Source: Eledone cirrhosa (Eukaryota). Taken from it: DNA of 64,000 bases. Of the stretch, positions 1,068 through 55,294 are shown piece after piece. The notes beneath the pieces were generated by a model. It was not told the origin of the DNA and ran no database searches. It saw nothing but the letters and a program-made list of their open reading frames with translations. Every line of letters begins with the position of its first letter. Within the stretch, counting starts at the first letter, position 1. The stretch is from NCBI GenBank assembly GCA_964016885.1, contig OZ024741.1, positions 108,252,001 through 108,316,000 on the forward strand, read 5' to 3'. Position numbers and translations under genes: made by a program.

Positions 1068-1260
1068 GGAACAAGTAGGACCCCGATGGCTGAGCTCAAG
1101 CCGTTTCGACGGCTAATTCTGGAGTCCAGAATTAGCCGTCGAAACGGCTTGAGCTCAGCCGTCGGGGTCCTACTCGTTCCTATTACCCACTCTACTACCC
1201 TAAGTATTGAGTACTTTGGTGCGTTATGGTCCACCTGGTTCCTTACCACATTTCCTTCGT
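1068..1260 (+). mobile_element. PLE mini-element family A: 113-bp palindrome (1068-1180, centre 1124) plus 80-bp tail, inserted in (TA)n
   Basis: Near-perfect inverted repeat. Right arm carries a hammerhead 3' half GAAA-CGGCT-tgagctc-AGCCG-TC-ggggtcc (1141-1170). Tail hairpin at 1189-1212. Homologues at 2561, 4858, 31710, 50266. Confidence 0.8.
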
Positions 1261-1329
1261 TATATATATATATATATATATATATATATATATATATATA
1301 TATATATATATATATAATTCTTTCTGTAT

Positions 1330-1497
1330 TTGTCAAAAGGCAGGCAAGTTGAGGGTAAAAGGAAAGACGGTTAAAGCGACTCTATGAGGAAGAAAAATGA
1401 AGCTAACCTCGGTAGGATTTAAACTCAGAACGTAAAGAGGTATAACTATATGCAGCAATGCATGTTGTCCGATGTTCTACCAATCCACTGGCCATCT
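1330..1497 (-). mobile_element. SINE family 1, degraded
   Basis: AAGCTAACCTCGGTAGGATTTAAACTCAGAACGTAAAG matches the reverse complement of the family 1 head. Confidence 0.7.
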
Positions 1498-1519
1498 AAT
1501 GATGATAATAATAATATTT

Positions 1520-2480
1520 TCTATTGTTCACTAGGGCATAATCATAGAGAACTATACAAAACAGGAACAATAGGGCTTTATATAAAACGTGTAAAAATAG
1601 ACATCAGGTCGCAATTAACAATAAATTAATAATAACAAAATTCCCTAACAGGAGTACCAACAAGGGGTTACTTAGAAACCCCTCAGATCCTAAGCCACGC
1701 CAATCTTCACGAGCCCCTCTCCGTTCTAAACTCTTCAGCCTACAGGCACGTGGTAAGATTAGTCCCATGCACTCGCATCATTTTCGTTACATTTACACAT
1801 CTTTTAACATATGTACAGGGGATGCAGCACTTTCCTCTCCCCTCTCAGCTTCCTTTCCAAGTGAAACTTGAAAAATTTGATGAGGATTTGGGCGATGGTG
1901 AAAGTGTCTATCTTCAATGTTTTCTGTCACATCCACCATACAACATCTTTTGCTACAGTCACCAAACAGAGGAAAATTGTCATACCGTCTATAGGAAGAA
2001 GATTGGACGATGTACACGATTGAGCCGGCTAATAGTCGGATCCGTCCTACAGGCAATAATGGCTGTTCCACAAAACTCCACAAATCAGTGCGTGTAAAAC
2101 GGTTTCATCGCTCCTCGTTTATCTCGGGCAGGTCCATCTGACAGCACCTCCGTGCCTCTAGAGTTTGTCTCGATCCAACAGTGATACTCGGTAGCACTGC
2201 CAAGTCAGTGTTTCCTGGAAATTTTCCATAGTCATCGGGACACAATGATTAGTACAATTTTGTTGATAACCAGAATTTCTTCGAAAACGCCGTCGCTCGT
2301 GTCCACGACAAATCTAGATATCGCTAAAGTGTAATTTCCACTGACCTCATTTCCCGACTGGCAGGGAACTGTGAGCGCTTGACAACATTCCAGAAGCAAG
2401 GCGTTTAATCCACGACGGCAGCTCAGTCAAAGAGACGGGTGCGGGAAAGACATGTCTCACAAACGGCAACCACATTTTGC
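1520..2480 (-). mobile_element. Degenerate 3' fragment of a Tx1/L1-like LINE ORF2 (zf-RVT region) plus 3' UTR
   Basis: Minus-strand peptides with stops and frameshifts: RDKL*RHGGAVRWTCPR..SDETVLHA (zf-RVT-like), LWSFVEQ..GRIRL..SIV, FFKFHLERKLRGERKVL. Confidence 0.6.
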
Positions 2481-2560
2481 TGCTCGTATATATGATTGAA
2501 TATATTTCTGATCTTTTCTTTCTTATATGTCAAATATCTCACTGCTTTATATATATATAT

Positions 2561-50937: not shown

Positions 50938-52989
50938 TATATATATATATATATATATAAATGTAAGTATGTATGTATACGTACATACATATATGTATAC
51001 AGACGTACAGTAGTATGTATATATATACATACATTTAAGTAAGTACCGTACTAAGAGTGAGAAATGAAATTTCGTTTCATTCTATTCCATTTATCTATAT
51101 ATATATATATATATATATATATATATATATATGTATATATATATATATATATATATATATATATATATATATATGTATATATATATATATATATATATAT
51201 ATATATATATATATATATATATATATATATATATATATATGTATATATATTTATATATATATGTATATATGTATATCTATATCTATATATATGTATATAT
51301 CTCTCTCTCTCTATATATATCTATATATCTATATATATATATATATATATTTATGTATGTATCTATATATATATATATATATGTATATATCTGTATATAT
51401 ATATATATATATATATATATATATATATATATATATATATATATAAATATATGTATATATATGTTTATATATGTATATATGTGTAGGGGTTTATATATAA
51501 ATTGTATGAGTCAAAACTAGTAGTCAAATATTGAAGCGGTTTTATGCGTCAGTTCATAATTTTGTCATAGTTTTCTATCGGACGTTTTTTGTACGACGCC
51601 ATTTCCTATTCTCTATCTATCTCCTTCTCTCGTTTTGTTACTATATATATATCTATGCCCTCCCTCCTGTCTCTCTCGCCCTCTCTCTCACCCTCTCTCT
51701 TTTTTCTGTTTCTCTCTACCCACACACAAAGATACATATTTAGATAGTTAGATAGATATACACATCTATATACATATTTATATATATATACTGTATACTC
51801 TATACTGTACACACACACACACACACACACACACACACACACACACACACACACACACACACACACACACACACACACACACACACACACACACACACAC
51901 ACACACACACACACATATATATATATATATATATATATATATATATATATATATACGATCATACATAAAAATATATGTGTATGTTTCAATCTATCTATGT
52001 AAAATCATAAATGAGTCACAGCATTTCTCACACTCAAATGTGACCAGAACATACATGTTATTTCCTGTCAAGACAATGGCGGTTGTGAGGGGTCGGTGAA
52101 TTAGTTATATCGTGTTTTGGGGGGTTTTTTGTCCGATTACCACTAATTCGTGTTCATAGCTATCAGATAAATATATCCATATGATGACCGTGCATGTAAG
52201 TACATATATATGGAAGGAAAATATTAGTTTAACGCTTGAAATAGCAGGAAGAGAGTCTTAAAATTTCCGACACTAGTTCTTCATCAGAAGAAAGAATGAG
52301 AAATTAAAGAAGAAATACAGATGGGCAGAGCGGAAAACTTAAAAACAAATTAGAGATAAATAACAGCTCCATTCATGCTGCAATTTCTTGAAAAAGTGTT
52401 GATGCTGGCATTTTGTGCATGATAGGCTTTTTTGGAAAAGGTGATAATGGAGCGCGTCTATCTGAAATGGAAAATAACCGTATTGTATAAAGAGCTGTAC
52501 CTGTGTGCGTGCGTATACGTGTGTGCGTATACGTGTGTGTTATTATAGGTCCGTGCGGAGTTAAGAGATTATGTGTTGGGATATGTAAGTAAAAGAGTAT
52601 GTGCGTGTGTGTGTTTGTAACTCTGAAGCCGTGAGCAAAAGTATGTGTATATAAGTCTGTGTGTGTGTGTGTGTATATATATATATACCATGATATTAAA
52701 TAAATGGAAACTATATTTATAAAACCATATTTATTTTATTATATATACGTATGAATTTATTTAGTTCTTGTAAAAATCGCCTAAATTCAACGTTTAGAAC
52801 TATATAGAGATTATAATTACACTTATAATATTTCTACTTATTTCCATATATTGTTTGCGTTAATTTCACTTCTTATAATTTCACTTATTAAATTTTCTTA
52901 AATTATATAGATATATATCGTAAATTTTTAAATTTTAACTTTAATTTTAATATATTTTAATTTTAATATATTTTCAGGTTTTTTAATTC

Positions 52990-53945
52990 TTTACTTTTTA
53001 TTTTTATTTTTTACTTCTTAAATCTTTTATTTTTATTTTTTATTTTTTATTTTTTTATTTTTTATTTTTTATTTTTTATTTTTTATTTTTTATTTTTTAT
53101 TTTTTATTTTTTATTTTTTATTTTTTATTTTTTATTTTTTATTTTTTATTTTTTATTTTTTATTTTTTATTTTTTATTTTTTATTTTTTATTTTTTATTT
53201 TTTATTTTTTATTTTTTATTTTTTATTTTTTATTTTTTATTTTTTATTTTTTATTTTTTATTTTTTATTTTTTATTTTTTATTTTTTATTTTTTATTTTT
53301 TATTTTTTATTTTTTATTTTTTATTTTTTATTTTTTATTTTTTATTTTTTATTTTTTATTTTTTATTTTTTATTTTATATTTTATTTTTTTTATTTTTTA
53401 TTCTTTATTTTTTTATTTTTTATTTTTTTTTTTATTTTTTTTTTTTTTTTTTTTTTTTTTTATTTTTTATTTTTTTTTTATTTTTTATTTTTTATTTTTT
53501 TATTTTTTATTTTTATTTTTTATTTTTTATTTTTTATTTTTTATTTTTTATTTTTTATTTTTCATTTTTCATTTTTCATTTTTCATTTTTTATTTTTTAT
53601 TTTTTATTTTATTTTTTATTTTTTATTTTTTATTTTTTATTTTTTATTTTTTATTTTTTATTTTTTATTTTTTATACTTTATTTTTTATTTTTTATTTTT
53701 TATTTTTTATTTTTTATTTTTTATTTTTTATTTTTTATTTTTTATCTTTATTTATTTTTTATTTTTTATTTATTTTTTATTTTTTATTTTTAATTTTTAA
53801 TTTTTTATTTTTTATTATTTTTTATTTTTTATTTTTTATTTTTTATTTTTTTATTATTTTTTTTTATTTTTTTTTAAATTTTTTTTTATTTTTTTTAATT
53901 TTTTTTTTTAAATTTTTTTTTTTTTTTATTATTATTTTTTACTTC
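52990..53945. repeat. (TTTTTTA)n heptamer array
   Basis: Read directly; degenerate toward the 3' end. Confidence 0.95.
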
Positions 53946-54839
53946 TAAAATATTTCATATATTTTAAAAATTACTTATTTTTTTAAAATTACTTTTTTTT
54001 TAAAAATCTACTTATAAAATAATTTTTATAATTAAAAAATTTTTTTTTATGGTTTTTAAAATTTTTTTTAATGTTTAAGTTCCTGAAAAAACACACATCT
54101 GGCGAGGAATCACAACATATTCATATCTACCAAAGAGGTTATACATATCCACTATCTTTATAACCTCTTCAGTAGATATGAATATGTTGTGACTCCTCGC
54201 CAGATGTGTGTTTTTTAGGGACTTAACCATTTTTGTTATGTCATTTGCTTTAGCCTGATCATGCAATAACCCTGCTTTGCTTGTGTTTGGCCTGTATTTA
54301 TTTATGTGGTGCATGTATATATACAGGTATAGCACCCATGGTCCACATAATTCCGTAACCTAGTAATATACCTTGATTATGTATACAATGGGGAGGAATA
54401 AATCCAAATTGGAATTTCTGAAGGTACTTTGGGAGCCTTTTAGTATTTCTATAACTCTAAGTTATGGAGAACTAAATCACCTGTTATATATATAGTGACC
54501 AACGCATATCTTCTGTTTTTTTGTGTGCTTTAAAAACTTTCTTTTTTCTTTTAAACATTTTTTTTTATCTCTTTATATTATTATTTTCCTTTTACTTTAT
54601 TATTATATATTTTAACTATTGTTTATATTTTTTTTGTTTTTGTGTGCCTTCACGTGCTTCTGCATCTTGTGAAAAAATCTGCCTGTACCATTGCATTTAG
54701 CTGAATAACAACTCCACTATGCACTCTTTCAATACTGGCTATTCCCGATCTCCCTCTTGTTGCCCTCTATTGTATTTCTAATGTTCATGTGACGAAGCTC
54801 GGTAGAGCTTATACTCAGCATTGTAATTTTATTTTTAAA

Positions 54840-54884
54840 GCTCTGATGATTCCTGTCCAATGGTATGGATGAAACATTGTTAGC
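54840..54884 (+). ncRNA. Minimal hammerhead of a family D relative (D', element roughly 52750-55040)
   Basis: GCT-CTGATGA-t-TCC...GGA-t-GAAA-CATTG-TT-AGC-AAATAAA. Downstream TATAACGGCTCTGT..TACATTGAG parallels the family D tail. Confidence 0.7.
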
Positions 54885-55294
54885 AAATAAAAATTGTATG
54901 AGTATGTAGGCGTTCGTTGATTTCTTTTACATATAACGGCTCTGTTCTTTTACATTGAGCTTATACAATACTGTCATAAATACGACATGGTGCAGGTACG
55001 TTTATACGCACACGCTCAGTGGTCTAAGTTTTTATAAAAAAATATATATATATATATATAAATTTACTATGAAAAATAGTCTAACAAATAGTCTAACAGT
55101 CCTCGCCCTTGGGGCGCTGACATTTGCCTTACGTCCGACGGCAGTGCTATTGATTGAACCAAAGCGAGGCTGACGAAATTCTCCGTTGTTTTAATGTATT
55201 CATCAACCGAATACATTGTAAACAATGATCTTCGTATCTGGATATATAGAATAAATAAATAACCAAGTTTCAATACACTAACACATTATTTAAT

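Follow-up and report, generated by a model that had tools for sequence, protein, structure and literature searches.

Introduction

The 3′ stem-loops of stringent long and short interspersed nuclear elements (LINEs and SINEs), such as those of L2/CR1 and of the R2 3′ untranslated region (UTR), recruit the reverse transcriptase (RT), lie 5′ of the start of synthesis and are copied. In L1 twin priming, two primed strands give rise to an inversion, and the internal start is not known to be fixed by a dedicated signal. The epsilon element of hepadnaviruses is a bulged hairpin that is bound by the RT, fixes the start of synthesis and templates the protein-primed start within its bulge. In telomerase RNA, protein-bound stems beside the short template set its limits, and the template-boundary stem, located 5′ of the template, stops synthesis. 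Here, we describe a pair of hairpins in Penelope-like elements (PLEs) of the Hydra clade, starting from a window of 64,000 nucleotides (nt) of Eledone cirrhosa DNA (GCA_964016885.1, contig OZ024741.1, forward strand positions 108,252,001 to 108,316,000), an AT-rich stretch of animal DNA with many (TA)n tracts in a 3.0-Gb assembly.

The RT of PLEs is placed as sister to TERT in the accessible text of Craig et al. 2021 (PMC8557442). An optional tail on one side is a hallmark of PLE insertions. As described in the accessible text of Frangieh et al. 2024 (PMC11167929), the Poseidon protein PAc of Anolis carolinensis cleaves both strands in vitro, starts internally at two sites that bound the tail and requires RNA up to position +172, which is ~55 nt 3′ of the start at +111-118. 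The elements analyzed here carry two hairpins, named HP1 and HP2 for the first and second copy between the hammerhead and the ATG, which are conserved across phyla, are coupled to both insertion ends and keep their fold on the sense strand. Individual analyzed loci are labeled with L-numbers (for example, L016 or L170).

Results

Insertion ends lie upstream of two hairpins in the 5′-UTR

Full-length elements follow the order hammerhead, HP1, spacer, HP2 and ATG, with the hairpins located 43-190 nt upstream of the ATG. Since the pseudo-long terminal repeat (pLTR) closes the preceding tandem unit, the tail forms the beginning of the 5′-UTR, comprising HP1 and the spacer at the start of the next tandem unit. 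A preliminary description of this stretch had regarded the hairpin as an element of the 3′ tail. It is indeed present in the tails, but as the first of two 5′-UTR copies of the next tandem unit and not as a 3′-end element as such.

To map the insertion ends, 2,908 ends adjacent to (TA)n, taken from the window and from a sample of 800 kb from four places beyond it, were compared with 15 family references, leaving aside 33 ends that aligned in antisense. In 13 of these families, a total of 110 ends aligned in sense. Of these ends, 45 fall at most 16 nt before HP1 and a further 55 at most 16 nt before HP2, the two zones together covering ~7% of the reference span; the other 10 lie elsewhere, and eight of them belong to a single reference, where they map far upstream. 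HP1 is left out at tail-less ends and HP2 at tail ends, and the tail length tracks the spacing between HP1 and HP2, which ranges from 67 to 169 nt. As the ends lie a few nucleotides 5′ of each hairpin, a hairpin fixing a start would not be copied from that start. In a group of metagenome loci, likewise, all 14 terminating copies end at hairpins, 11 before HP1 and 3 before HP2. The true ends of full-length family C copies are found before HP1 (6 of 14) or HP2 (8 of 14), and both sites can therefore yield long copies. A loss of homology 17 nt before HP1, seen in 21 of 30 full-length loci, was rejected as a set of real ends: it reflects an internal relic pLTR, with the true ends ~1.5 kb further. 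In a young family C subfamily (L308-L321), the 3′-UTR contains, before the true pLTR, a relic hammerhead/pLTR that has diverged, together with ~1.2 kb of sequence rich in microsatellites.

At 17 of the 24 modal ends, as counted by eye, the reference continues as TA or AT, as would be expected from annealing of a cut (TA)n end to the linker. Such annealing might also account for the ends if the hairpins were 5′-UTR elements serving translation, packaging or transcription and the nearby ends resulted merely from A/U-rich linkers pairing with (TA)n. The location of the hairpins before the ATG and the TA or AT at the start of the linkers are in line with this explanation, and a promoter-like score is given for the 34-bp repeat of D. 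virilis, though the repeat is dispensable for transcription (accessible text of PMC2377424). Yet the elements are AT-rich throughout, while 100 of the 110 ends are confined to two linkers, and the tail length follows the hairpin spacing from 67 to 169 nt. We therefore consider it very unlikely that the hairpins are UTR elements with only a coincidental relation to the ends.

An expansion of the motif was observed at G000:C1:14.23-14.24 Mb (L202-L229), where a 58-bp satellite reaches 41 units in one 3-kb locus, with at least ~100 pattern matches. Each unit consists of a TA-rich linker and one hairpin resembling that of family A, and the array passes into a normal tail and TA. The satellite could have arisen by unequal crossing-over or by repeated re-priming of the RT.

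The hairpin is enriched in tails selected without regard to it

Elements were picked blind to the motif. Each had to be flanked by (TA)n tracts on both sides and to begin with the reverse complement of a site close to its opposite end, and the overhang was taken as the tail. Outside the window, 52 elements fitted this definition, and 9 did so within it. The sequence pattern of the preliminary description was present in 24 of the 52 outside tails, corresponding to 14 of 30 clusters. It occurred in none of the 52 reverse complements and in none of the 52 upstream segments, and 200 shuffles gave a mean of 0.15 (maximum 2), which confirms that the hairpin is real and exceeds chance. Comparison with shuffled sequence gave the same picture for the window as a whole (36 matches versus 8-18 in 10 shuffles) and for the 800 kb (177 versus 68). 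Among the latter 177 matches, 65 precede a (TA)n tract by 25-75 nt and 7 follow one at this distance. In the motif-blind tails the hairpin starts 2-29 nt, mostly 6-11 nt, past the tail-less boundary. A search of Rfam returned 0 matches at the gathering score; at E up to 5, the matches were mostly microRNA models on simple repeats and palindromes, as judged among 150 of 272 matches.

In addition, TA-flanked inverted elements with tails of 33-66 nt and no hairpin were observed (window 11451-11867, L081, L037, L072, L087 and L083). They lend themselves to a search for an equivalent signal with a different sequence.

Pairing of the inner stem is maintained on the sense strand

For the covariation test, hairpins were positioned by sequence anchors only, without demanding pairing; both anchors were present in 20 non-redundant tails of 61, and 17 were scorable. 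Inner pairs 1-4 are paired in 16, 16, 14 and 14 of these 17 families, versus 9.0, 13.1, 6.5 and 7.9 after permutation. Their sum of 67, compared with 41.9 after permuting the arms, was reached in 0 of 10,000 permutations, although permuting families ignores shared ancestry and thus renders the p values optimistic. Inner pair 5 showed no covariation signal in the 17 families. Among 15 hairpins from metagenome loci, inner pairs 1-3 are formed in 14, 12 and 14 cases versus 10.4, 7.8 and 6.7 after permutation. The invariant outer helix carries little covariation and closes with G-G in family D; in one family, C-G of the outer helix is replaced by T-A on both sides, a compensated change. The inner stems conserve pairing and not sequence, and the loops are between 3 and about 100 nt long. 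UUCG loops are present in several hairpins (L083:6222-6616, L242, L092), two of them with a C-G closing pair, which we take to be that of the stable RNA tetraloop.

Initial counts of G-U versus A-C pairs were too small (4:2 and 3:2). Over 63 variants, with both wobble types allowed, sense G-U exceeds A-C by 24:5 (p 5e-4), and over the 26 variants occurring at least twice by 7:0. Because neutral mutation would give symmetric wobble, this bias suggests that selection holds the fold on the sense-strand RNA rather than on the first-strand cDNA.

This result bears on the possibility that the signal is read in DNA, with the GIY-YIG endonuclease (EN) recognizing the motif in cDNA or in a double-stranded intermediate and cutting beside it. 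Craig et al. attribute the tail to EN-mediated resolution (accessible text of PMC8557442), and the D. virilis tail is needed for EN cleavage of plasmids (work cited in the accessible text of PMC11167929). The wobble pairs, however, point to the sense strand, and inner stems that retain pairing rather than sequence, together with loops ranging between 3 and about 100 nt, are in keeping with a folded single strand. A signal read in DNA appears quite improbable to us.

Protein motifs place the carriers in the Hydra clade

The C-terminal GIY-YIG EN region of family I (14990..15613, + strand) contains a CxCX5C linker, CxxC and CxH beside the conserved E and N and lacks CCHH, a combination that marks the Hydra clade in the accessible text of PMC8557442. 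CxCX5C, CxxC and CxH are likewise found in the open reading frame (ORF) of L170, which has the N-terminal RWK and DKT motifs, and in the homolog alignment; 26 longer homologs of the family I endonuclease were found, 16 of which were aligned, with RWK and DKT. One member of a homolog cluster is of coral origin. The single ORF encodes the RT followed by the C-terminal EN, and the genome contains intact frames of 714 aa that align over residues 14-723 of a homolog. A pattern for the ORF start matches 2,614 times in the genome versus 2 for the control. Families A, B, C, H and I were traced to the ORF start and families F and G to Hydra-like coding sequence, while no protein is tied to families D, D′, L and P. 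On the strength of these motifs, the carriers that can be tied to a protein are Hydra-clade PLEs. Since families A, B, C, F, G, H and I all connect to Hydra-clade proteins, the hairpin would be inherited, which contradicts the earlier view of unrelated families. The TA-flanked insertion ends match the (TA)n targets of the clade. A hammerhead core lies past the ORF in 21 of 30 full-length loci, the nearest core in family C being the internal relic. An assignment to the Neptune clade was dropped on the linker motif.

Outside this genome, inspection by eye of six new Hydra consensus sequences (supplement of PMC8557442, as accessible) revealed the hairpin in three, a degenerate form in two and none in one. 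Hydra-2_Amil and Hydra-2_Ajap carry the hairpin and Hydra-1_Ajap carries both copies, the hosts being a coral and a sea cucumber. Among 79 metagenome loci, 16 had a scorable 5′ region and 27 a scorable 3′ region, and the hairpin was detected in 9 of each. In one Neptune-like family the motif was absent from 20 of 20 loci. In the Naiad, Chlamys and Hydra files, a word search, from which line breaks may hide matches, gave 7 matches, 4 in Hydra hairpins and 3 elsewhere without a hairpin by eye. These two comparisons, with a single family and a single word search, are no proof that an equivalent is absent from other clades. Pfam returned no family for 7 window frames and 5 full-length homologs, no relative was found in viral contigs, and none among PDB sequences (best E 0.18).

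Two side observations concern PLEs of this genome. A young Neptune-like family (L288-L307) has open frames of 784 aa, at least 150 near-identical matches and ends beside CA/TG repeats. The hammerhead core in the family A pLTR (L016, L237) seems, by eye only, to have a U3-A8 variant, as is described for Schistosoma PLEs in the accessible text of PMC4209133.

Hairpins of the window

The 12 sites of the preliminary description are all correct in position and strand. Clean bulged folds are formed by HP1 of family A (1189..1212, +; tail 1181-1260, with a tail-less inverted arm from 1068), D′ (54939..54960, +; hammerhead core 96 nt upstream), F (41859..41883, -; core 105 nt upstream), G (46791..46812, +) and H (47072..47091, +; 1-nt bulge, core 72 nt upstream), and, with an internal mismatch, of family I (14009..14054, -), located in the tail of an inverted insertion (13971-15855). 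The other folds are weaker than had been claimed. In family B (50876..50894, +; HP2 non-canonical) there is space for three inner pairs only, which are not formed in the minimum free energy structure; in family C (16656..16676, +; core 89 nt upstream) a register shift allows a fold without the bulge; and in family D (27428..27461, +) the closing pair is broken (G-G). Family L (44716..44763, +) is degenerate with internal loops, and family P, with degenerate hairpins in copy 1 (34746..34783, +) and copy 2 (35306..35343, +), requires both copies. The reported association with hammerheads applies to part of the sites: a strict core at most 400 nt upstream was found at 5 of 12 only (C, D′, F, H and copy 2 of P).

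Further HP1 copies that had been missed belong to family A (4907..4930, -), family G (30217..30237, +), an A-related family (31836..31859, +) and another family (63606..63645, -), which by eye is that of the L026 tail. The insertion of family F also includes an endonuclease fragment (42995..43276, -).

The sole HP2 found within the window is the degenerate one of family P copy 1 (34826..34849, +); copy 2 terminates 6 nt short of the corresponding position. Similarly, the family C tail in the window stops ~6 nt before the HP2 of the full-length element. At loci elsewhere, HP2 follows 6 nt past the tail end in family A (L016/L237), 8 nt in family F (L200) and ~8 nt in family G (L285/L287); it is present in family I (L048/L241) and as a variant in family H (L268). 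For family L, a search for a read-through copy found none.

The family D insertion (24617-27589) has long hexamer arrays in both inverted arms. Family P (34746-35382) forms a 560-bp tandem unit with a hammerhead-like core, HP1, HP2 and no ORF seen, and is possibly a non-autonomous, retrozyme-like derivative. A reading of the GAG-GT end as a splice site was dropped, as C, D′ and I lack GT there.

Discussion

Taken together, the position of the ends suggests that each RNA hairpin is probably a docking site that sets an RT start, with copies ending a few bases 5′ of HP1 or HP2. The endonuclease would cut both strands of (TA)n, and the hairpin-bound protein would offer the A/U-rich linker 5′ of the hairpin to the cut 3′ end by means of short TA microhomology. 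Reverse transcription would then begin ~5-8 nt 5′ of the hairpin, primed by the cut (TA)n DNA. A start before HP2 would copy HP1 and the spacer and thereby generate the tail, a start before HP1 would leave a tail-less end, and one start per DNA strand would produce an inverted insertion with the tail at one end only. The earlier proposal of a cis-acting recognition or priming signal is borne out in part: such a signal, with its predicted function, is the best reading.

The same end map and the sense-strand fold are also compatible with hairpins that direct a cut in the RNA a few nucleotides 5′, by the element protein or a host nuclease; the cut would create 3′ ends from which the RT then starts, as in ordinary target-primed reverse transcription. 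RNA-seq read ends that coincide with start sites (accessible text of PMC11167929) argue in this direction. According to the same text, however, internal starts by PAc occur on longer RNA and depend on sequence located 3′ of them, and the TA or AT continuation at the ends suits primer annealing across the site. An RNA cut thus seems unlikely as the origin of the ends.

Several observations weigh against docking hairpins. The invariant outer helix shows little covariation, the p values for the inner stem are affected by the shared ancestry mentioned above, and HP2 frequently has 1-2 inner pairs only. Family B has precise ends yet no canonical HP2, just a 4-bp stem that lacks the bulge and retains the 3′ flank, and HP2 of families H, Q and P deviates from the canonical form. 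The strict motif is missing in 28 of the 52 motif-blind tails, which include decayed copies, variants, false elements and families without a clade assignment. Moreover, the supporting in vitro data on PAc come from another clade, Poseidon, and an antisense template has been proposed for PLEs (accessible text of PMC3846280); the G-U bias of the variants is against the latter.

The binding of both hairpins by a single protein dimer is a guess based on the predicted dimer of the Anolis protein. It is possible, though somewhat doubtful, that HP1 and HP2 of one RNA molecule each load one half of the same Penelope dimer. Both cut strands would then be primed at fixed internal sites, which would constitute a twin-priming ruler for the PLE tail and inverted arm in general and a portable handle.

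The described Hydra clade (accessible text of PMC8557442) shares with the present elements the protein motifs, the pLTR hammerhead, the (TA)n targets and inverted insertions with a one-sided tail. It differs in tails of 30-40 nt versus about 60-160 nt here, and that text does not mention hairpins and ascribes the tail to EN-mediated resolution. As with PAc, the tail would be the sequence between two RT starts and RNA 3′ of the start would be required; in the accessible text of PMC11167929, however, the start of this member of another clade is placed in an AC-rich stem-loop inside the ORF without target homology, and no repeated hairpin is described.

Like epsilon, the PLE hairpin is bulged and is predicted to be bound by the RT and to fix its start. 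The analogy drawn in the preliminary description nevertheless fails on geometry: the ends lie outside and a few nucleotides 5′ of the hairpin instead of in the bulge, they are joined to (TA)n target DNA, and two copies are used. The predicted recruitment of the RT by an RNA structure is shared with the LINE 3′ stem-loops, and the proposed inversion from two primed strands with L1 twin priming. In contrast to a LINE-type stem-loop, the PLE hairpin lies 3′ of its predicted start and is not copied from it, as tail-less ends lack HP1 and tail ends lack HP2. The likeness to telomerase RNA is one of arrangement, with putatively protein-bound stems beside a short template region, the PLE hairpins being located 3′ of the predicted start.

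A literature search over openly accessible full text found no paper on this element, in agreement with the earlier statement that no description was known. The hairpins are not described in the accessible text of PMC11167929, PMC8557442, PMC4209133, bioRxiv 10.64898/2026.07.22.740005, PMC6765202, PMC8969392, PMC2377424, PMC3846280 and PMC7229834. The hairpin pair is a real, clade-wide and apparently unpublished cis element of a known retroelement clade.

The finding offers an RNA element of 20 nt that spans phyla, with exactly predicted start positions and intact 714-aa elements for testing. For the Hydra clade, the hairpins provide a rule for element boundaries and for the recognition of non-autonomous copies. 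If the loading of a dimer were true, the two hairpins would furnish a handle with which a telomerase-related enzyme could be programmed for RNA-templated insertion. The docking of the RT at hairpins would explain the tail, and the hairpins are relevant to the question of how RNA is held by the enzymes most closely related to telomerase.

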